Source: Giardia intestinalis (Eukaryota). Taken from it: a stretch of 64,000 nt of DNA. A program made the translations under genes and the position numbers. Numbering within the stretch: the stretch's first letter is position 1; every line of letters begins with the position of its first letter. Below the pieces are notes generated by a model. It made no database searches. It worked only from the letters and a program-made list of their open reading frames with translations, and was not told the DNA's origin. The stretch is taken from the NCBI GenBank assembly GCA_000002435.2, contig CM018792.1. The stretch is one strand, 5' to 3'. Positions 55,540 through 64,000 of the stretch are shown here, piece after piece.

Positions 55540-55566
55540 CCACCATTTATCACAGTTAAATGGTGG
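55540..55566 (+). repeat. perfect 9-bp inverted repeat (CCACCATTT ... AAATGGTGG, 9-nt loop) whose 3' arm contains the OGT ATG
   Basis: Read directly: arms 55540-55548 and 55558-55566, loop ATCACAGTT. ATG at 55560-55562. Confidence 0.5.
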
Positions 55567-58500
55567 CACTTATGGATAAAATCGCACAGCTTTTCCGCAA
55601 CAAACAATATAGCGATCTTATTCAACTCATAGACAAGCAGCTACACGCGAAGAATGAGCCAGAAGCACTAATCTTTCTTTACGCTATACAAGGCGAGATA
55701 TCCTTTAAACAGAAGGATTGGATTCAAGCATTTGCAGCTTATGAGAAGGCTGTCGCCGAATCTAAACAGAAGGGGCTCCCGACACAAGTCTACGCCCAAA
55801 TAGTTCAGAGGCAGATGATTATCCTTTTAAGATTGCAGATGTTAGACACAGCGTTCGGATTGTTTAGTGAAAATCAGAGTGTATCTGTTGATAACGTACA
55901 AGTATTAGCACAGTTAGCCTTGTTGTATCTGATGTGTGAGCGATATTCAGAAGCAGAGAAATTACTTTCTTCTATAGTCGAGAGTTCTACCTCAAATACC
56001 ATCACCCTTTCAAAGCAATTCAAGGAGGACATAGGCCCGTTCAAAGAGCTATTTGGCGTTTTGGACACATATGACACATTTCTTGCGACCATTTTGAACA
56101 ACCTAGCCATCTGTAATAGCAAGCTTGGGAATCACACGCTAGCGTTTGATCAGTTTCAGCAGGCACTAGACATAATAAAAGACCCAGAGAAAATAACCAG
56201 GCCACCATTGTCACCGATCACCGTGCTGTTCGACAACTGTGTCTCCACGGTAGATGAAGATAAAGAGAAAGCTCTAAAAGTAGAGCACCACATGCTGACG
56301 ATTAACGAGTCTAAAGAGAACCAAGAAGATGACACAGTCCTGAGCTTGCTTAGGGATGGGTGCACGCTGATTCCTTCAAGTACACTGGGCACCCACCTGC
56401 CACTCATAATCGAATTACACTCTACCATATGCTATAACATTGGAAAATTAGAATTGACTCTAGGGAACCTTGACCGGTCAGTCAATCACTTTAAGAAGTC
56501 CATTGAATATCAGCCCAGCTTTGCTCGATATGTGGCACTTGGTCTTGTATATCGCGACATGAGGAACTTCTATGATGCTGCAGAGATGCTGACTAAAGCA
56601 GTAGACTCGTGCGTGGGAATCAGCAACCTTTGTTTGGGAGAAGTGGTATATAATTTAGGTATATTAGTTTCTGAAGAGCTAAAGATGCCGTACAAGTCTC
56701 TACAGTTTTTCGATGAAGCCACCGTTTTGTTTATTAGGGGCGAGTTTAGTGCTGGCGCTATTTTGTCAAGAATAATGAAGGCTAATTCTTTGACAACTAT
56801 CACCACAGCTACCGCTGTAAGTAGTGACTGGGAGTTCATAATGGCATTTCTAAATACGTTATATTTAGACCTCTGTGCATTTAGCAAAGATCAGGGGTTT
56901 AATGTAGAAGCCGCCTTCACTGGCACCAACGCTATATCCTTCAATCTGCCAATCACGGAGCCACAGGAAAAAGAGTCCCCTAAGAGTGACAAGATAGCTA
57001 GCGAAAAGCCTCTAGTTGAAAGTAACCCTGGCAGATCAAGAACACCCTCATCAATGAATGACGTATATATGCTGAGCGCTGAAAACTTGAGCTTCAGCCT
57101 GCTAGAGTCCTCATTTGCTCAAAAAGAGACTATCACATCACGGCTATTTCCAACCTTCCAAGCTGAAACAAAGAGATACTTGGCAATCTTGTATACCAAT
57201 CTTGGGCTGATCTACTACCGCATTGGCATTCCTACGTATTACAAGCAAGCAAGGAGGTGTTTTGAGGTTGCCATCTGGTTCGATAACGACTGTGTTTTTG
57301 CCATCAACTATCTTAGCGTCCTGTTGCTGAAGGAGAACTCTAAAACCTTGGCCATTGAAGGTCTGCTTAAATGCACAAGGTTGTTTCCAGAATATTACGA
57401 GCCATTTTATAACCTTGGCAACATACTGAAGGCAGACGAGGAGAACAAGAAGGCGCTTCAATATTACAGCAGGGCTATTGAGCTGAACCCCCGTTTTCTT
57501 GACGGATATCTTGCCAGAGGGGTGCTCTATGCTGAACTACACCGCTTTGAAACGGCCTATTTAGACTTCAGTAAGTGTATCGAGCTCGATCCTGACAACA
57601 GGCATGCATTTTGTAACTACATCCATATGAAGCAAATACTGGGCATTTTCCATAACGATACCTTAGATATGCGAAAGATCTCAAAAATCATAGACGATTA
57701 TATCCACGAATATCTGACTGTCCAGAATGCGATCAATAAAGGGGTGGTTCTTCCAAGCCACCCTCTCCCTCCAATAATGCCCTACCACTGTTATCTTTAC
57801 CGGCTGTCGTCGTCTCAACTGAGATTTATTTGTCAGCGATACTCTGAGCAGAATGTTAATTGGGTGAAGCAGAACATAGATATGATGTCTACCCCGCTCC
57901 TGGATCTTTCTATTCATCAACGCCCAATGCCGCCAAGTATAGGTCTTATCAACTCCGTATCTTCTAGCTCTCAACTCCAACTCTCCATGCTTCCGCTCAA
58001 CCAATCAGCCGCCGATTCTATGGTGCCTCTTGCTATGCTTACACCTGGGCCTACTCTCTGCACAGCCATAGGATTCCAAAGCATTAAATCCGTCATTAGA
58101 GATTCGCAGCACATAACACACGGACCAATTTTTTCATATGATAGGGCCCTGATTACCCTAGCACGATCCAAGCATTCTTCCAAGTGCCCTATTTCATACA
58201 TTGATATTGTCAATCTTAAGTCACCTCTGAGGCTCGGAGTGTTATGTGACGACATAAACTCCATCCCGATTGGCTGCATCCTTGAGTCGTGGCTACGCAA
58301 TATCGATCCCAAAGTAGCATCCCTATCCATTTATAGCACAGTTGCCTCCGACAAATCCGCCCTCCGCACTTCTCTTGAAGCTCACTGTAGCAATTTCATA
58401 GACTTTACTAACTATAAGTACCAGAACAACCCCTTTTTGTGTGCTCAGAGAATAAACGGAGATGGGATTTGTATCATGATATCTATGTGTCAGCATAATT

Positions 58501-60002
58501 GTGGTCTGGAAGGAAGGATCCTGGCAATGCGGCCGGCGCCGATCCAGATAAGCTATTGGACGCACGGCGGAACCACTAATAGCAACTATCTCGACTATAT
58601 TCTTGCGGATCAATACTGCATACCACCAGGCTATGCGCACTTGTATTCCGAGCATGTCATCACAATGCCGGGGTGCTTCATTTGCCCCAGCCATAGTATG
58701 CATTATAGCAATGCGATTCTCCTGGAGGAGCACGCGGACATCCTCAAGGTCACTGTGGAGGAGGTCAGAAGTCTCATTCAGGACAGCAAGCCCGATATAG
58801 ATGTGAACCATCACAGCGCTGCTGGAGAGAATATTCTGAGCCTGGACGGAAGCGATGCAACGTCGTCGTCTGTTGATAGTGGAATAGGGAGCCGCACACA
58901 TTCGGAAGCACCGATTGGAGGCGGCGACAAGGACGAGGGAGCCCACAGCTCAAAGATATTAGAGCTGGAGCTGGAGCTGGCAGAAATAGCGAAGATGAAG
59001 GGGGAGACTAAGAATGGGGTGTCGACAAACTCGGCTAGCGAGGGGAGGGACGAGCTTTTGATGAACGATAGAATCCTCATCACCGGTGACAATGTGTTTT
59101 TCCAGGTCCAGCCGATCCGAAACGGACGGTTGGTTGGCGGCAGAGATAGATCCATGATCAAGAAGATGGAGCCGCTGTTGAAGGCCATTTATCCGCTGCA
59201 AAGAATCGCTTCGGAAGCGGCAGTTCCAGCTAGCATGGAGAAGAGTGAAAATAATTCTGATCTCACCAGTCACCGCGTGTGTCTGGAGCTGCCTCTATAT
59301 CGCAAGAACATCCGCGCGCTCTACGGGATACCGGCTAACTGCTTTTTGTTCTGCACGTTCAATCAAGTGTACAAGTTCGACATGGGGACGCTGGGAATCA
59401 TCGCCGCTCTGCTGCGCAGTGTGCCCAATGCATACTATGCGCTCCTCAAGTTTCCCCCTGCGTCTCAGCTGCACATCGAGGCCTTCTTTAGGCACAAGGC
59501 GCCGGACATCTTGGATAGGGTCATCTTTCTAAGCATGCTTCCGATGAAGGTGGAGCACATACGGCGCTACCTGGCCGTTGATGTGTTCGTGGACACCTTG
59601 AAGTGCAACGGAAGCACCATCGTGCTCGACGCGCTGTGGTCAGGTGTTCCTGTCGTCGGATTTGTAGGGGAATACATTCTTAGCCGGAAGACCCTTTCGT
59701 TTCTGAGCGTCCTGGAATGCAAAGACCTGATTTGCGCGTCCCAAGGGGAGGCCGTACTATTGTGCACCCGCTTGGCGGTAGACAGCGGCTACTATTTTAG
59801 CGTACGGAAGCGGATCCTAAAGAATAGATCGAATCTCTTCAACATTTCGCGGTGGTGTGACAACTTCGTGTTGACCATGATGCTTGCCTACAAAAACTGG
59901 ATCTTCGGCGGCAAGCCGACCAGCTTTTCGACAGAGAGGGTCATTGCAAACGTGAAGAGCCAGGGCTTCTCGTGGCCCTTAAAGAGTACGGGGGCACAGT
60001 AG
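55560..60002 (+). CDS. OGT: UDP-GlcNAc:protein O-GlcNAc transferase (N-terminal TPR array + GT41 catalytic domain)
   Basis: 1480 aa. TPR repeats through the N-terminal ~800 aa (e.g. YYSRAIELNPRFLDGYLARGVLYAELHRFETAYLDFSKCIELDPDN). Catalytic core ISYWTHGGTTNSNYLDYILADQYCIPPGYAHLYSEHVITMPGCF aligns with metazoan OGT (SYWGYPGTSGA.FMDYIITD...YSEKLAYMPHTFF). An intervening low-complexity domain follows. C-Cat LFCTFNQVYKFD...LLRSVPNAYYALLKFP...VDTLKCNGSTIVLDALWSGVPVV matches VFCNFNQLYKID...ILKRVPNSVLWLLRFP...[23 protein letters not shown]. Confidence 0.85.
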   Translation: MVALMDKIAQLFRNKQYSDLIQLIDKQLHAKNEPEALIFLYAIQGEISFKQKDWIQAFAAYEKAVAESKQKGLPTQVYAQIVQRQMIILLRLQMLDTAFGLFSENQSVSVDNVQVLAQLALLYLMCERYSEAEKLLSSIVESSTSNTITLSKQFKEDIGPFKELFGVLDTYDTFLATILNNLAICNSKLGNHTLAFDQFQQALDIIKDPEKITRPPLSPITVLFDNCVSTVDEDKEKALKVEHHMLTINESKENQEDDTVLSLLRDGCTLIPSSTLGTHLPLIIELHSTICYNIGKLELTLGNLDRSVNHFKKSIEYQPSFARYVALGLVYRDMRNFYDAAEMLTKAVDSCVGISNLCLGEVVYNLGILVSEELKMPYKSLQFFDEATVLFIRGEFSAGAILSRIMKANSLTTITTATAVSSDWEFIMAFLNTLYLDLCAFSKDQGFNVEAAFTGTNAISFNLPITEPQEKESPKSDKIASEKPLVESNPGRSRTPSSMNDVYMLSAENLSFSLLESSFAQKETITSRLFPTFQAETKRYLAILYTNLGLIYYRIGIPTYYKQARRCFEVAIWFDNDCVFAINYLSVLLLKENSKTLAIEGLLKCTRLFPEYYEPFYNLGNILKADEENKKALQYYSRAIELNPRFLDGYLARGVLYAELHRFETAYLDFSKCIELDPDNRHAFCNYIHMKQILGIFHNDTLDMRKISKIIDDYIHEYLTVQNAINKGVVLPSHPLPPIMPYHCYLYRLSSSQLRFICQRYSEQNVNWVKQNIDMMSTPLLDLSIHQRPMPPSIGLINSVSSSSQLQLSMLPLNQSAADSMVPLAMLTPGPTLCTAIGFQSIKSVIRDSQHITHGPIFSYDRALITLARSKHSSKCPISYIDIVNLKSPLRLGVLCDDINSIPIGCILESWLRNIDPKVASLSIYSTVASDKSALRTSLEAHCSNFIDFTNYKYQNNPFLCAQRINGDGICIMISMCQHNCGLEGRILAMRPAPIQISYWTHGGTTNSNYLDYILADQYCIPPGYAHLYSEHVITMPGCFICPSHSMHYSNAILLEEHADILKVTVEEVRSLIQDSKPDIDVNHHSAAGENILSLDGSDATSSSVDSGIGSRTHSEAPIGGGDKDEGAHSSKILELELELAEIAKMKGETKNGVSTNSASEGRDELLMNDRILITGDNVFFQVQPIRNGRLVGGRDRSMIKKMEPLLKAIYPLQRIASEAAVPASMEKSENNSDLTSHRVCLELPLYRKNIRALYGIPANCFLFCTFNQVYKFDMGTLGIIAALLRSVPNAYYALLKFPPASQLHIEAFFRHKAPDILDRVIFLSMLPMKVEHIRRYLAVDVFVDTLKCNGSTIVLDALWSGVPVVGFVGEYILSRKTLSFLSVLECKDLICASQGEAVLLCTRLAVDSGYYFSVRKRILKNRSNLFNISRWCDNFVLTMMLAYKNWIFGGKPTSFSTERVIANVKSQGFSWPLKSTGAQ

Positions 60003-60023: not shown

Positions 60024-61691
60024 CTATGAGGACTGCGCTGATCTGTGCCTACGAAATCGAGATCCTATATACGTGTTATTGTATTTGTCCACCCACGCAG
60101 GCCAGATGCACGTGTACCTGGCTGCTCCACTCGATGGCTGCACCATCGTGCCGTGCTCCATTGCGTGCTCACACATTCTGAGCTCGTGATATCCGTAGGT
60201 GGCCCTCTGAACGGGCAGAATGTGCAACTCGTGGAGGATGGCAAATGTGGAGAGGATTGCATAGAGGAACGAAAAGTCCAGCTCGCCGTCTCGTAAAAGG
60301 TGCCTCTCTGCATTGAATAGGCGGACGCGCTTGTACTGGGGCCACAGCGGGACAGTGATCCTGGACATGCTGTTGATCTGCAGGAACTTGAGGTAGTAGC
60401 GGTGCAGGAAGTTGCCGTAGCTGGACTGAACGGAGTCAAACCAGTGGGCCCTGACGTACATGCGTAGAGACACCAGTAAGTTGACTGTATTGTAAATATC
60501 GCTATCACCGTGCGATGATGCGCCGTCATCTCTAAGAATGGTCCGAGCCTCTGCCAAGGAGGCAGGTAGGCGAGGAAGGTCCGCTGGCTCCAGAGCAAGC
60601 ACAAACTTATAGAAGGCGTCGCTGCTGAGGAGCTCGCGAACAAACTCTGCTATCTTAAAAAGGGTCACACCTATCATAATGGAGGCCTTGATAGCCGAAA
60701 GAGCCGGCTGCGCGTCGGCGAAGAGCTGGTAGAGCTTGTCGAGCGGCGGAAAGAGGGAGATCAGCGAGTATGTACACCCATTGCGATACTTATCGATCAC
60801 GGTGAAAAGGTTCTTCCTGAGCTGGCGAGGGTCTTCTGACGAGGGTCTGCTGCACGGGGGCTCATTGAGACGTGGCTCTCCAGAATACAGAGACGTTCCG
60901 CCTACTGTGTTCTGTTCTTCTGGATGGCCTGCACGTAAGGAGACCAGATCTTCCATAGGTGGCAATGCAGAAACTTTTCTCCTGAAATAGTCGAGCTCGT
61001 CAAACGCAACGGGGTCAGAAAACCTGCCATTGGCATGCGGTCTGATGGCTGATGTGCGGAGACGCCTGTGGCGGGATGAACGGATGCTTGCCGCCGACTT
61101 GCGGGCTATATTTCCAGCGAGTGCACACGTTTGTGCCTCGCATTCCTCAGAGGGTGAATCATAGAATGAATCCTCGCAGGCCATTTGAGCCGGCTGCCCA
61201 GATGAGTGGACCTCCTTCCAGAAAAGAGAATGCTTGGGCCGAGGTGAAGAGCTGTGAGGAAGAAAGCCGTCAGATTCACGCACCTTCCAACCATGCGCCA
61301 TATCACTCTGTAGCCTGTCACGGTCTGCAATAAGAGAAGAGCTACAAGAGCGTTTCATTGAAGAGCACGATGAGCCTCTGCATAGCTGTGTCTTGATGTC
61401 CTCAGAGCTCAGGCTCAGCAAATGTATCTTGGCCTCAAGATCTGCAATTGCCGTCGTCGTGCTGTTTAGAACATCGAGATAGTGCGCCGCCTGTAGCTTT
61501 AGTCCCCGAAGCTGGCTCATACACGCAGTAATTGCTACGTCGTCTCTGCGCACCTGGGAGTCAATGCGACGCCACATCGCTTGTCGCCGACACCTTTCCT
61601 CTGTGTCTTGGAGTGCCCTGACACTGCTTCTCTCTGTCCCACGTCGATGCTGCTCTGTAAGCTCCTCGGGGGACAGATATGCAAAACCCAT
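60024..61691 (-). CDS. hypothetical protein, 555 aa
   Basis: ATG at 61689-61691. Long ORF, no recognisable motif. Converges on the OGT 3' end with a 21-nt spacer. Confidence 0.45.
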   Translation of the reverse strand: MGFAYLSPEELTEQHRRGTERSSVRALQDTEERCRRQAMWRRIDSQVRRDDVAITACMSQLRGLKLQAAHYLDVLNSTTTAIADLEAKIHLLSLSSEDIKTQLCRGSSCSSMKRSCSSSLIADRDRLQSDMAHGWKVRESDGFLPHSSSPRPKHSLFWKEVHSSGQPAQMACEDSFYDSPSEECEAQTCALAGNIARKSAASIRSSRHRRLRTSAIRPHANGRFSDPVAFDELDYFRRKVSALPPMEDLVSLRAGHPEEQNTVGGTSLYSGEPRLNEPPCSRPSSEDPRQLRKNLFTVIDKYRNGCTYSLISLFPPLDKLYQLFADAQPALSAIKASIMIGVTLFKIAEFVRELLSSDAFYKFVLALEPADLPRLPASLAEARTILRDDGASSHGDSDIYNTVNLLVSLRMYVRAHWFDSVQSSYGNFLHRYYLKFLQINSMSRITVPLWPQYKRVRLFNAERHLLRDGELDFSFLYAILSTFAILHELHILPVQRATYGYHELRMCEHAMEHGTMVQPSSGAARYTCIWPAWVDKYNNTYIGSRFRRHRSAQSS

Positions 61692-63005
61692 AGCGCAGGG
61701 CAGTCGGAAAGTAGAGCCGGACTCTCGCTAATTTTTCAGACCAAAGGTCGCCAATAAACCTGTTCACTGATAGTCTGTCTAGTCGAACGTCTGGGGTCTG
61801 TGCATAGCAGTCCTCAACAAAACACCAATAGGCCCCCAAGGCTCTAGCGTTTGACTTGGGAAAAGTAGGGGATGTGACGAACAGACACGTTTCACTAGGT
61901 GTATCTGAGCAAATTCCCTCGTGCAAGCTACTGCACTGGATGGGTCTCCTGCTTACCGTCCAAGATCCGAGAGTCGGATGCCCTCGATTCCGGCGGAAGA
62001 ACCCCTATGTCCCAGCTCTCCTAAAAGCTGCCGCTCCTCGCGGTGCCCCCTAGGACTTCCCTCCCTCTGGCCCGTCGGGGTCAACCATCGTCTGATATCT
62101 AGTGAGCACCCGTTGTCTCGGGGCTACCGTCGGTCACAGCAGCCTGGCCTCCGCGTGACTCTGGTGCTCCGTGACGAAGATTGCACGCCACGACCCCGGG
62201 TGTCTACCCCGTTCCTCGGGGTGCCTCTTCGTCTCCTCGTGGATTATACCATCAGTCTCGAGTATGATCGGAGGGTGCGCTCCACGTACGCCTCCATCTT
62301 GAGGTTGTGGTACGCATTCGTGGATGTCGATGGAGTACTCCCATGTGTTGTGTCGGGGAGAAGTATGGCCCTCTGCTCATGGATCGCAGGGCGCTCTTGC
62401 AGGTGCTCCGTCACCCAGGACGAGATCATGTCGATGCTCACCCTGTGCAGTGCGTCTGGCTCAGTGACCTGTGGGCTGGTCCATCTGCACCGCACAGCAC
62501 GCTTGGGGGTGATGCTTCGGTCTGTCGAGACGGTTGGTCCAGGGCCGCATCTCTGAGAGGCGTCGTCTGAGGCACCAGGAGCAGTCAGGACCGGTTCACC
62601 GAGGCCGTCTCTCTACAATCGGCACCCGTCTACTCGATGGTGTCAGGCACTGCCAGCTGCTGTAGTAGACCCCCGGCAAGTGACCCAGACCGCCACCACT
62701 CTCCGGTGCAGGCAGGATCAGTCCGCCTCTGTCAGCCAAGCACCCCAACTCCTATTTCTTGTCGAGGGATTCATATGGGTCACGTGTGGGTCTGTCTGGA
62801 CAAGCGGGGCGAGTGATTAGTACCATCACTAGCTTCGGCCCTCCGTTGCCCTCTCTATCGCCTCGGGGGAGGGGCATAAATCTTCTTCCATCAAAGTGGA
62901 TGACGTCTGACCTGTGAGATCTGGATCTCGGTTGCTGAAGAGCGAGAGACACGCCCAGTATAATAACTTGCATAGGGACTTCCTCGGGCAGTTGGCAAAC
63001 TAACC

Positions 63006-63482
63006 TTGGTGAAGCAGAGTAGATTATGGACAATAAGCAACAGTTCGACGCCTCAAAGCAAGGCCCTGCTACTATACAATCCAGCGATCAATGCATACGA
63101 GGTCTCTATCAGTGTTGCTCTGCTATCGTTATATCACTCGCAAAAGCAGTACATTCTTTCCGACCCTGTCATAGCTGTCCTGCGGAACATGTGCAGCGAT
63201 ACTACGTTCACCACAGACAGCGATACACACCTGAAGGTGCGTCTTAACTTGGATATCGAAACCAGCGATGGATATCAGGGGCTCGAGGCAGATGTCGTCT
63301 TCTTGTCGTTGTCGGAGCCCAGAGGTAATGAATTCAGGAATAACCTCTGCAGATCTCTTGTGGCTGTAAGCCGGGCACGCAGGCTATTCGTCTGCATCGG
63401 GGCAGTAGACCAATACGACAATCAAATATGGAGAAATGTATCTAGCACAGTGTCCTGCCCAGGTGTTCAAACAGTAGCGTAA
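63006..63482 (+). pseudogene. C-terminal fragment of an Upf1/Sen1/DNA2-like superfamily-1 helicase (motifs V-VI only); probable gene relic
   Basis: Frame opens immediately after a TAG at 62973 and begins with TTG (no ATG for ~60 codons). Encodes ...TSDGYQGLEADVVFLSLSEPRGNEFRNNLCRSLVAVSRARRLFVCIGAV, which matches Upf1 motif V TVDSFQGREKDFIILSCVR and motif VI RRLNVALTRARYGVIIVGN. No Walker A/B-containing N-terminal part is present upstream. Confidence 0.45.
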
Positions 63483-64000
63483 CGACATCGTCAAGTCCAG
63501 TTAGTATACTTACATCATTTAAACCCTCAAGTCTTTCTTTATCGAGTGGGCCTATCCGGAGTCTCAGCACAAGTTTTTCTCCCTCCTGTATCAGGCTGTG
63601 CATGGTCTTAGCCACATGTCGAAGAATGGTTGAAGCCCGTATTGATATAGATGCATCGTCAGTATTAATAAGAGTTTTGGAGAGCATTGCGGACTGATCA
63701 TAAAAACTGTGGGGATCCACTTCAAATATGTCCCTGTCTAAGTTATACTTTGTCACTATTTCATTAAAGGTACTGCACTCCTTATTAACAAATTTGATGA
63801 GTGTATCAAACTTTCGGCTCTGGATGAAAAGTTGCTCCTTATATTGTCCAGTAAGCCTTAGTGCGTCATCTAATTGTTTCCTTAACACCGCTTGCTTCTC
63901 CTGTAACCTGATGTTCTCCTTTTCAAGGCTTTCATACTCTGCTGTGGTCTTTAAAGTGTCAATGGCGGTTCTAAGTGATAAATTCTCAGCCCTTAGGTCT
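63442..64000 (-). CDS. partial coiled-coil hypothetical protein; 5' end lies beyond the window
   Basis: ORF track start 63888 is a GTG and the frame stays open to the window edge. Heptad-rich (LRLRIGPLDKERLEGL..., and upstream ...LKAENLSLRTAIDTLKTTAEYESLEKENIRLQEKQAVLR by eye on the reverse strand). Confidence 0.3.
   Translation of the reverse strand, partial: DLRAENLSLRTAIDTLKTTAEYESLEKENIRLQEKQAVLRKQLDDALRLTGQYKEQLFIQSRKFDTLIKFVNKECSTFNEIVTKYNLDRDIFEVDPHSFYDQSAMLSKTLINTDDASISIRASTILRHVAKTMHSLIQEGEKLVLRLRIGPLDKERLEGLNDVSILTGLDDVVTLLFEHLGRTLC

Follow-up and report, generated by a model that had tools for sequence, protein, structure and literature searches.

Giardia reportedly carries remnants of retrotransposons, namely GilM, GilT and the dead GilD. 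Segmental duplications of at most 20 kb each account for 6.9% of the WB genome (Xu et al., 2020, Sci Data, PMC7000408). Some Giardia genes are split and trans-spliced, as with Hsp90, dynein heavy chains and the p68 helicase, and a screen of the WB, P15 and GS transcriptomes yielded five trans-spliced cases (Roy, 2017, PMC5224939). We analyzed the region 61692-63482 of a 64-kb window (the whole stretch of DNA under study, 64,000 nucleotides of Giardia intestinalis WB), in which a non-coding block adjoins the start-less tail of an Upf1-like helicase gene. Like the segmental duplications of WB, it belongs to a multi-gene inter-chromosomal stretch (~3.4-4.2 kb plus ~0.55 kb) with >90% identity and truncated genes at the ends. 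We propose, with a probability of about 0.8, that the region is the junction of a chromosomal rearrangement or segmental duplication, produced by a duplicative staggered exchange with a repeat at its edge. The orphan tail and the repeat are ordinary rearrangement debris and not a new gene or RNA.

The block at 61692-63005 is the sole clearly non-coding stretch of the window and also the most GC-rich. Its left edge is the start codon of the 555-aa gene, with the ATG at 61691. Between there and 63005, the longest ORF has 211 codons (61921-62556, GTG start; 215 codons measured stop to stop) and lies on the strand of the helicase fragment, in line with a preliminary description that reported no ORF longer than ~210 codons. 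Codon-usage scores are positive in no frame of the block, against +10 to +20 per 100 codons in flanking genes. GC content reaches 59.2% and 59.6% in the 1-kb windows at 61751 and 62001, the two highest values across the 64 kb, where 44-51% is typical, as expected from the earlier remark that the block is GC-richer than its surroundings. It had also been called CpG-rich, which holds for the raw count but not for the observed/expected ratio of 0.755, within the normal range of 0.6-1.1 across the stretch. A search of 61000-64000 for direct, inverted and tandem repeats returned nothing beyond two 12-13-nt chance pairs. The block is composed of three pieces: the putative promoter region of the neighboring gene, a truncated dispersed repeat and unique filler (Table 1).

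Table 1. Features at and around the junction, in window coordinates
Feature	Position	Strand	Evidence
Segment common with locus B, 91-99% identity	58631..62060		blastn, sliding identity
GL50803_114392, 555-aa hypothetical protein	60024..61691	-	Exact WB protein match
Upstream region of the 555-aa gene	61692..61896	-	Four-way alignment, P15 conservation
Dispersed repeat copy, right-truncated	61897..62852		HMMER, word-index and tblastn matches to other copies
Junction filler	62853..63019		No match elsewhere; flanked by two homology ends
Partial duplicate of the helicase gene 3' end	63020..63565	+	Locus-B contigs, WB protein, Pfam
Gene X 3' part, putative coiled-coil protein	63442..64000	-	Open frame, codon score

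The helicase frame opens at 62976, immediately after a TAG (62973-62975), and runs uninterrupted for 169 codons to a stop at 63480-63482. Its first in-frame ATG (63189) is codon 62 of the listed 158-codon ORF, matching the ~60 codons without ATG noted before. Pfam AAA_12 (PF13087) matched the fragment with E=1.8e-7 and 31.4 bits (cut-off 27) over profile positions 103-193 of 195, corresponding to the C-terminal half of the second RecA domain only, motifs V and VI included, and this supports the initial assignment to the Upf1-like SF1B family. Positions 63030-63479 encode residues 1282-1431 of the 1431-aa WB helicase XP_001707935/KAE8301346, with 93.3% amino acid identity (140/150), and the fragment is 94.6-94.8% identical in nucleotides to the contigs carrying the full-length gene. 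Besides these codons, the duplicated piece includes the stop and the 83 bp downstream of it. Like UPF1/NAM7, ZNFX1 and Aquarius, the fragment has the portion of AAA_12 with motifs V/VI; unlike them, it is the last 150 of 1431 residues, without RecA1, Walker A/B or the start codon of a complete ORF. Neither Pfam nor tblastn detected RecA1, Walker A (motif I) or motif II (AAA_11/AAA_19) in the fragment. When the full-length 1431-aa paralogue was compared with the window by tblastn, aa 1282-1430 matched, nothing did upstream of 63030, and no frameshifted motifs I-IV appeared in the block; the catalytic N-terminal part is missing, as first described. With no start codon, no promoter-like context and no first RecA domain, the fragment is most likely non-functional. 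Relaxed constraint on it is not demonstrated, because its dN/dS against functional copies is 0.17-0.50 rather than ~1, on small counts (20 differences). GS protein GL50581_1441 (40% identity), considered as a second fragment, turned out to be the contig-truncated end of a full-length relative.

An intact parent gene lies on another chromosome, which argues for a truncated duplicate at a rearrangement junction rather than a dying gene. We refer to the locus of the window as locus A and to that of the full-length helicase as locus B. XP_001707935/KAE8301346 maps to a 1.485-Mb (1.49-Mb) WB contig, while the OGT and 555-aa genes of the window match WB proteins of the 2.76-Mb contig exactly (XP_001707303/KAE8303407 for the 555-aa gene). 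The accession KAE8301346 is consecutive with KAE8301345 (GL50803_111871), a paralogue of the 555-aa gene. The parent helicase combines a 780-residue N-terminal region with AAA_11 and AAA_19 (aa 787-1118) and AAA_12. It is very divergent, its nearest solved relatives being ZNFX1, UPF1 and Aquarius (PDB E ~1e-8, over ~90 residues only). This helicase occurs as aa 1-628, as aa 1-1431 and as aa 1282-1431, each version at a locus of its own with different neighbors, and the three together record a small cascade of duplicative rearrangements.

We read the DNA of locus B from a contig of isolate DH and an ENA metagenome scaffold, both from assemblage A; its structure in WB would follow from the WB protein records combined with these two sources. 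In both, the 3' end of the helicase gene corresponds to window positions 63028-63565 and is followed by 58631 onward. The break lies 83 bp past the helicase stop, within a 41-codon stub of gene X; next come ~41 bp of filler and a second copy of the shared segment, made up of the final ~1.37 kb of OGT, the whole 555-aa gene and the ~370 bp that precede it. This is a segmental duplication with an intact parent, the second-locus DNA being that of DH and the ENA scaffold, in which the duplicated pieces are 94.6-99% identical to locus A. Sliding identity between the loci declines from 99% (OGT) to 96-97% (555-aa gene), 90-92% (61701-62100) and then 66-85%. The right end of the shared segment is approximate (62060-62100), with the ENA scaffold stopping at window-equivalent 62058, and the last base of locus-B homology on the repeat side is 62852. 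Between loci A and B, the helicase piece has a dS of 0.07-0.13 and the 555-aa gene one of 0.06-0.07, values comparable to the between-strain dS of 0.065-0.09. We found no A-run after the fragment copy, as a processed pseudogene might carry, and the companion duplicated piece holds genes on both strands and intergenic DNA, unlike a retrocopy of a single mRNA.

On the right side of the junction, the gene X frame is open across 63445-63999, including the breakpoint at 63565 where locus-B homology stops, and has a positive codon score. Gene X overlaps the last 13 codons of the helicase fragment and runs past the end of the window; its coiled-coil Pfam matches are weak and sub-threshold. Its last 41 codons are the sole part copied beside the full-length helicase. 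Locus A therefore has OGT and gene X intact with the helicase truncated, and locus B has the helicase intact with OGT and gene X truncated. One partner intact and the other truncated at each locus fits an exchange with staggered breakpoints. While the sequence similarities, their break positions and the existence of a repeat family are observed, the order of events and the mechanism described next are inferred. At the ancestral site, the 1431-aa helicase gene would have ended tail to tail with gene X, and 63020-63565 would have been retained there. Two ancestral loci would then have exchanged DNA with staggered breakpoints, leaving overlaps of ~0.55 kb and ~3.4-4.2 kb in both products, with filler DNA at the joins.

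The comparison with repeat-mediated rearrangement (non-allelic homologous recombination, ectopic gene conversion) is mixed. As in such systems, the high-identity paralogy between loci A and B ends at or just inside the repeat, past the boundary the two loci carry different repeat members, and short-read assemblies break there. The repeat was probably a boundary of recombination or gene conversion, because the high-identity paralogy ends there. Unlike in such systems, the other ends (58631, 63020, 63565) fall within unique coding sequence and have filler DNA at them, which would resemble end-joining or template switching and not homologous recombination. A divergent Giardia lineage with 69% amino acid identity carries the helicase, 30 bp and then a 3' fragment of OGT, which begins at window-equivalent ~59468, with no gene X stub. 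Because this lineage has the join, the helicase-OGT junction may be old and its copies kept alike by gene conversion; recurrent rearrangement may equally have produced it. A single recent event behind the A and B junctions is not established. In the searchable literature, we found no description of the junction, of its permuted two-piece arrangement or of the edge repeat, and no papers by gene ID.

The left part of the block belongs to the neighboring gene. Homology to P15 (assemblage E), at ~74%, extends to 61896 and then ends, and the AT-rich element CTAATTTTTCAGACC at ~61729-61743 is invariant in a four-way alignment. Its position and conservation suggest that this stretch is the promoter region of the 555-aa gene, which itself has a positive codon-usage score and in which we found no Pfam domain. 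P15 lacks the repeat at the equivalent position.

The central part (~61897-62852) is, by sequence comparison, one right-truncated copy of a dispersed non-coding repeat of ~60% GC in assemblage A, with a left edge uncertain by ~50-90 bp (61897-61990). With the 211/215-aa ORF as query, HMMER and a word-index search matched only short Giardia ORFs on many contigs (DHA2_154554, 151684, 152905, 152276, 150217, 150211 and GL50803_31118), in the case of HMMER against 1.8 billion proteins. On the window, tblastn places these matches on 61874-62848, with shifting frames. The copies (six DH ORFs on six contigs, the locus-B copy on a seventh and one WB ORF) put the family at a minimum of seven loci (>=7) in assemblage A genomes, and multiple diverged copies at unrelated loci of one genome make it an interspersed repeat family. 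A copy at a third locus, flanked by NEK/ankyrin debris and a TFIIB gene, shows 84.7% identity across 62062-62544 (476 aligned bases), so that in this interval the window copy is nearer to it than to the locus-B copy (78.0%). Overall, the copies differ by ~15-25% with many indels, and others run on past the equivalent of 62852, with truncation points that vary between copies. The 10 longest stop-free segments of the six frames of the block gave no Pfam match at E<=1 except a chance zinc-finger match. Of two metagenome scans for further copies, one returned nothing and the other seven matches, two of which share just a 21-22-nt word and five of which have no blastn similarity. Like GilM, GilT and GilD, the block is dispersed, degenerate, ORF-less, multi-copy and found near VSP and NEK/ankyrin debris; unlike them, it has no reverse-transcriptase or endonuclease similarity in any frame and no poly(A) end, the comparison covering their coding remnants. 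We also considered a VSP/HCMP pseudogene, an idea suggested by the P15 neighbor; tblastx gave only marginal, low-complexity similarity (best E=0.001), and Pfam showed no match to a VSP family. Between repeat and fragment lie ~170 bp of filler (168-175 bp), which contain the in-frame TAG and found no match in ~200 kb of Giardia DNA beyond a single 15-nt chance word.

We further considered whether the repeat (~1 kb or longer) plays a more active role, as a recombination-prone element behind recurrent inter-chromosomal duplications and translocations, with old loci subject to GC-biased ectopic conversion. The loci would be old because the helicase-OGT join is also present in the 69%-identical lineage. 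Continuing ectopic GC-biased conversion would then keep the loci 95-99% identical, and would also explain the intact ORF and low dN/dS of the relic and the GC3 of OGT, which rises from ~0.48 to 0.61-0.78 near the duplication boundary. We regard this extended scenario as unlikely.

It is very unlikely that the fragment is functional, as a trans- or cis-spliced 3' exon or as a small protein translated from the ATG at 63189. Its ORF is intact, its dN/dS is low, and the stretch 7-25 nt ahead of the homology start contains a branch-like ACTAAC hexamer and a CAG. Some split genes of Giardia are indeed trans-spliced, a different helicase among them (PMC5224939), and like these the fragment is a start-less C-terminal coding piece far from the remaining gene. 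Unlike them, it lacks the defining splice and cleavage signals. The extended 3' splice signal CT[AG]ACACACAG (consensus from PMC5224939) is absent from the plus strand of 61692-63482 even with up to two mismatches (<=2), and neither the GTATGTT 5' site nor the TCCTTTACTCAA cleavage motif occurs in 61692-63482; across the 64-kb window, the counts of both equal chance expectation. The spacing from ACTAAC to AG is also unlike the fixed Giardia spacing, and none of the five trans-spliced introns of the transcriptome-wide screen is in the helicase gene (Roy, 2017, PMC5224939). The helicase gene is not split, since the full-length paralogue includes its own C-terminus. The ATP-binding RecA1 domain is missing from the fragment, and youth or gene conversion would also give an intact ORF and low dN/dS.

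There is only a slight chance that the GC-rich block holds a structured non-coding RNA, close to the second possibility raised by the preliminary description, or a conserved and functional non-coding element of another kind. The block is the only long non-coding stretch of the window and GC-rich, one 150-nt window on the minus strand (62100-62249) folds with z=-3.55, and a structure proposed by RNAalifold for three copies has a few compensated pairs. Yet the mean folding z-score across the block is -0.14 (sliding 150-nt windows, both strands), and covariation contributes -3.5 of -113 kcal/mol in the three sequences. Rfam cmscan of 60500-64000 on both strands gave 0 matches at E<=1 and ARAGORN 0 tRNA genes. 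The copies are 78-85% identical with many indels, the best-folding segment is only 66% identical between the locus copies, and truncation points differ among copies.

Decay in place is barely credible: a full helicase gene would have stood between the 555-aa gene and gene X, its 5' two-thirds mutating into the GC-rich block. The 3' context of the fragment, gene X, does appear ancestral, and the 211-codon ORF of the block is unusually long and on the helicase strand. However, aa 1-1281 have left no residual similarity in any frame although the kept part is 93% identical, the homology stops within a few bases, ~1.3 kb of block faces 3.8 kb of missing coding sequence, and the first 200 bp of the block are the conserved upstream region of the neighbor. 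Nor can the block be taken for eroded 5' helicase sequence: it belongs to a repeat found at helicase-free loci and, by these comparisons, is unrelated to the helicase. Of the earlier wording of a truncated or eroded relic, we retain relic and truncated and drop erosion, the similarity to the full helicase beginning sharply at ~63020-63028.

An assembly artefact, with the reference wrongly fusing the two paralogous loci, is just as improbable. In its favor, the region borders both a duplicated segment and a dispersed repeat, and three short-read assemblies break at or near this border. The DH locus-A contig stops at window-equivalent 61528, within the duplicated 555-aa gene. The ENA locus-B scaffold stops at 62058, within the repeat, and the DH locus-B contig runs ~350 bp past the equivalent of 62852. 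Against it, the window comes from a PacBio chromosome-scale assembly and shows no intact helicase at this locus, a Logan contig (SRR9222601) is 100% identical over 62958-63889, through the join of filler and helicase into gene X, its support beginning at 62958, to the right of the repeat/filler join at 62852, and the fragment represents a distinct locus because it differs by ~5% in bases from the locus-B copies.

The main value of the rearrangement-junction reading is annotation hygiene. The fragment is better labelled as a truncated paralogue (pseudogene) of the GL50803 helicase XP_001707935, and the GC-rich block as promoter plus interspersed repeat than as a candidate gene or RNA. The identity step at or just inside the repeat, together with the GC3 step of OGT, offers a concrete place for tests of ectopic conversion. 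If the conversion scenario were true, this locus would serve as a natural reporter for both ectopic recombination and GC-biased conversion in Giardia, a tetraploid protist without a proven sexual cycle.

The start-less helicase fragment most likely arose by truncation at a rearrangement junction, and its intact paralogue lies elsewhere in the genome. The frame is open from 62976 to a stop at 63480-63482 and start-less, as the preliminary description had it, with no ATG before 63189. It matches the C-terminal half of the Pfam AAA_12 profile only (E=1.8e-7). It corresponds to the final 150 residues of a 1431-aa protein with AAA_11, AAA_19 and AAA_12 domains, found intact, together with a close paralogue of the 555-aa hypothetical gene, on an ENA metagenome Giardia scaffold (L003) and on a contig of the assemblage A2 isolate DH (L005). 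The WB orthologue (XP_001707935/KAE8301346, 'AAA domain-containing protein'), on a 1.485-Mb contig, is identical to the fragment at 140/150 residues; the accession immediately before it, KAE8301345 (GL50803_111871), belongs to the WB paralogue of the 555-aa gene. The window's O-GlcNAc transferase gene (OGT) and 555-aa gene are both placed on the 2.76-Mb contig of the chromosome-scale WB assembly. When the full-length helicase was compared with the window by tblastn, aa 1282-1430 alone matched, at 63030-63476, and nucleotide similarity begins within a few bases of 63020-63028. The parent is a very divergent Upf1-like SF1B helicase; among solved structures it comes closest to ZNFX1, UPF1 and Aquarius (E ~1e-8 over ~90 residues).

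We established locus order from blastn and junction sequences, taking locus-B DNA from DH (L005) and the ENA scaffold (L003) and WB locus B from protein records. At locus A, in the window, OGT and the coiled-coil gene X are intact and the helicase is truncated; at locus B, on another chromosome, the helicase is intact, OGT is truncated and gene X is a 41-codon stub. Filler lies at the joins of both loci. This reciprocal pattern of intact and truncated genes is what would be expected if two ancestral loci had exchanged DNA at staggered breakpoints. An independent short-read contig reproduces 62958-63889 exactly.

Features of loci A and B in window coordinates, with identity of locus A (WB) to locus B (DH)
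Feature	Coordinates	Strand	Identity	Remarks
Locus A, 1st: complete OGT	55560-60002		99% (OGT part)	1480-aa ORF; exact match to WB XP_001707304/KAE8303406
Locus A, 2nd: 555-aa gene GL50803_114392	60024-61691	minus	96-97%	exact match to WB XP_001707303/KAE8303407
Locus A, 3rd: upstream DNA and GC block	to 62852		61701-62100, 90-92%; beyond 62100, 66-85%	beyond 62100, indels not multiples of three
Putative promoter region of 555-aa gene	61692 to ~61896			~74% conservation with P15
Dispersed repeat copy, truncated at right end	~61900-62852			homologous short ORFs at other loci; L011 DNA copy
Locus A, 4th: unique filler	62853-63019			168-175 bp; no match in Giardia DNA compared
Locus A, 5th: helicase 3' piece	63020-63565
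Locus A, 6th: gene X	63442 to beyond 64000	minus		seamless continuation; frame open across 63565
Locus B, 1st: complete helicase	ends in equivalent of 63028-63482
Locus B, 2nd: 83 bp	equivalent of 63483-63565
Locus B, 3rd: AT-rich filler				~41 bp
Locus B, 4th: shared segment	equivalent of 58631 onward			last 1.37 kb of OGT, 555-aa gene and its upstream DNA

At synonymous sites the A and B copies have diverged to a comparable degree in the helicase piece (dS 0.07-0.13) and the 555-aa gene (0.06-0.07), by no more than strains differ from each other at the same locus (0.065-0.09). The lineage of Logan contig L008 (ERR3333382), whose helicase is only 69% identical, shows the helicase-OGT adjacency of locus B with another breakpoint: 30 AT-rich bp after the helicase stop are followed by an OGT 3' fragment (L008:4334-4456) that begins at window-equivalent ~59468, without the gene-X stub. 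In P15, an assemblage E isolate, the repeat and the helicase piece are both missing after the 555-aa gene; an unrelated spacer of ~1.2 kb stands there instead, then the 3' end of a gene resembling those for cysteine-rich membrane proteins. Because of these two lineages, the events may date further back, with the copies homogenised by conversion, or else be recurrent. The end of the P15 contig (L006:17800-18020; minus strand in window orientation) is 69-71% GC and encodes the cysteine-rich C-terminus, with a transmembrane stretch and a short basic tail.

The GC block, 61692-63005, directly adjoins the ATG of the 555-aa gene and is ORF-poor and GC-rich as first described, with a longest ORF of 211 codons and the highest-GC 1-kb windows of the whole window (61751, 59.2%; 62001, 59.6%); it is CpG-rich in raw count only, its CpG observed/expected of 0.755 being ordinary. 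Codon-usage log-likelihood, trained on the window's own genes, is positive in no frame of the block, unlike that of the helicase piece and of the genes on either side. The block has three parts. The first is most simply read as a promoter region, since it is conserved in P15 and holds an invariant AT-rich element ~40-50 bp ahead of the ATG of the 555-aa gene. The second is a repeat copy, whose 211-aa ORF matched 21 clusters of short ORFs in a full HMMER search and 18 in a word-index search. All named matches are Giardia hypothetical ORFs, GL50803_31118 from WB and six from separate DH contigs, several of these marked 'partial' where the contig ends. Placed back on the window by tblastn, they span 61874-62848 with changing frame, as would be expected of DNA-level homologues lacking a conserved ORF, and no frame of the window copy matched a Pfam family. 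Copies elsewhere run on past the equivalent of 62852, and the window copy is therefore truncated there. The DH copy on L011 (~60% GC) has broken NEK/ankyrin and VSP ORFs on one side and a TFIIB gene on the other. At L011:6729-10022 (AHGT01000023) it adjoins a chain of short ORFs resembling an NEK kinase/ankyrin gene broken by frameshifts and a piece of a VSP gene, which suggests that the repeat tends to occupy gene-debris regions. The third part is filler.

Over 62062-62544 the window copy is 84.7% identical to the L011 copy, from an unrelated locus, versus 78.0% to the locus-B copy, sharing 63 informative sites with the former and 30 with the latter; the ENA scaffold ends at window-equivalent 62058. 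Together with the drop in identity between loci, this closer relationship indicates that the truly shared segment stops at ~62060-62100, at the repeat's edge or a little way into it, and that to the right the two loci carry different family members. On the simplest reading, it is within the repeat that the duplication, or later gene conversion, would have its boundary. Within OGT, GC3 is ~0.40-0.57 over codons 1-1000 and rises to 0.61-0.78 over the final ~480, with a step near 58560 that lines up with the duplicated part (58631 onward); GC at codon positions 1-2 shifts far less (~0.38-0.47 to ~0.43-0.51), and P15 OGT shows the same GC3 trend more weakly (0.50-0.64). GC-biased gene conversion between paralogous copies could account for this rise.

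A third, N-terminal partial copy (L009:10001-11929 and L010; WB GL50803_14637, KAE8301580) runs from aa 1 to ~628, followed by 14 unrelated codons and a stop; three loci therefore carry versions of the helicase, comprising aa 1-628, 1-1431 and 1282-1431. The left flank of this third copy (a 1459-aa gene) is common to locus B over at least 6 kb at 98.4%; a VPS13 gene lies farther left in L009, outside the aligned stretch, and the right-hand neighbour is an ARID-domain gene. Within assemblage A, the functional helicase seems to be evolving rapidly. In the stretch matching the fragment, the private differences of the L003 helicase (codons at window 63063, 63081, 63111, 63213, 63240 and 63348) are all non-synonymous C->T or G->A transitions (6/6); two also occur in the WB protein, so some, at least, are real polymorphisms.

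On sequence alone, the fragment is unlikely to be functional. Its ORF is intact and its pairwise dN/dS is 0.17-0.50, but this ratio rests on just 20 differences, and a recent origin of the copy, or conversion by the functional paralogue, would equally well give both features. The fragment's last 13 codons (63442-63482) overlap tail to tail with the last codons of gene X, so that selection on gene X also acts on part of the fragment. The structured non-coding locus envisaged in the preliminary description found no backing: there was no Rfam match at E<=1 and no tRNA, the mean folding z-score was -0.14 with a single outlier, and conservation was poor with weak covariation over three copies. The sole unusually stable 150-nt fold in the repeat (62100-62249, minus strand, z=-3.55) falls in the very segment where the copies at loci A and B agree least (66%). 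Expression of the fragment through Giardia-type splicing fares no better: the extended 3' signal CT[AG]ACACACAG, 5' signal GTATGTT and cleavage motif TCCTTTACTCAA (PMC5224939) are absent from 61692-63482, an ACTAAC...CAG directly before the homology start lacks the fixed Giardia spacing, and none of the five trans-spliced introns in Roy's transcriptome-wide screen lies here (PMC5224939). Erosion in place of the helicase 5' part is made very unlikely by the abrupt homology start and the intact paralogue.

The fragment was thus rightly taken for a gene relic in kind, but the GC block, made of upstream region, repeat and filler, is no helicase remnant, and the mechanism is most likely truncation at a junction. 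Segmental duplications with truncated genes are documented in WB, where they make up 6.9% of the genome and reach 20 kb in length (PMC7000408). This junction is one more such case, particular in its informative permuted layout and in the unclassified repeat at its edge.
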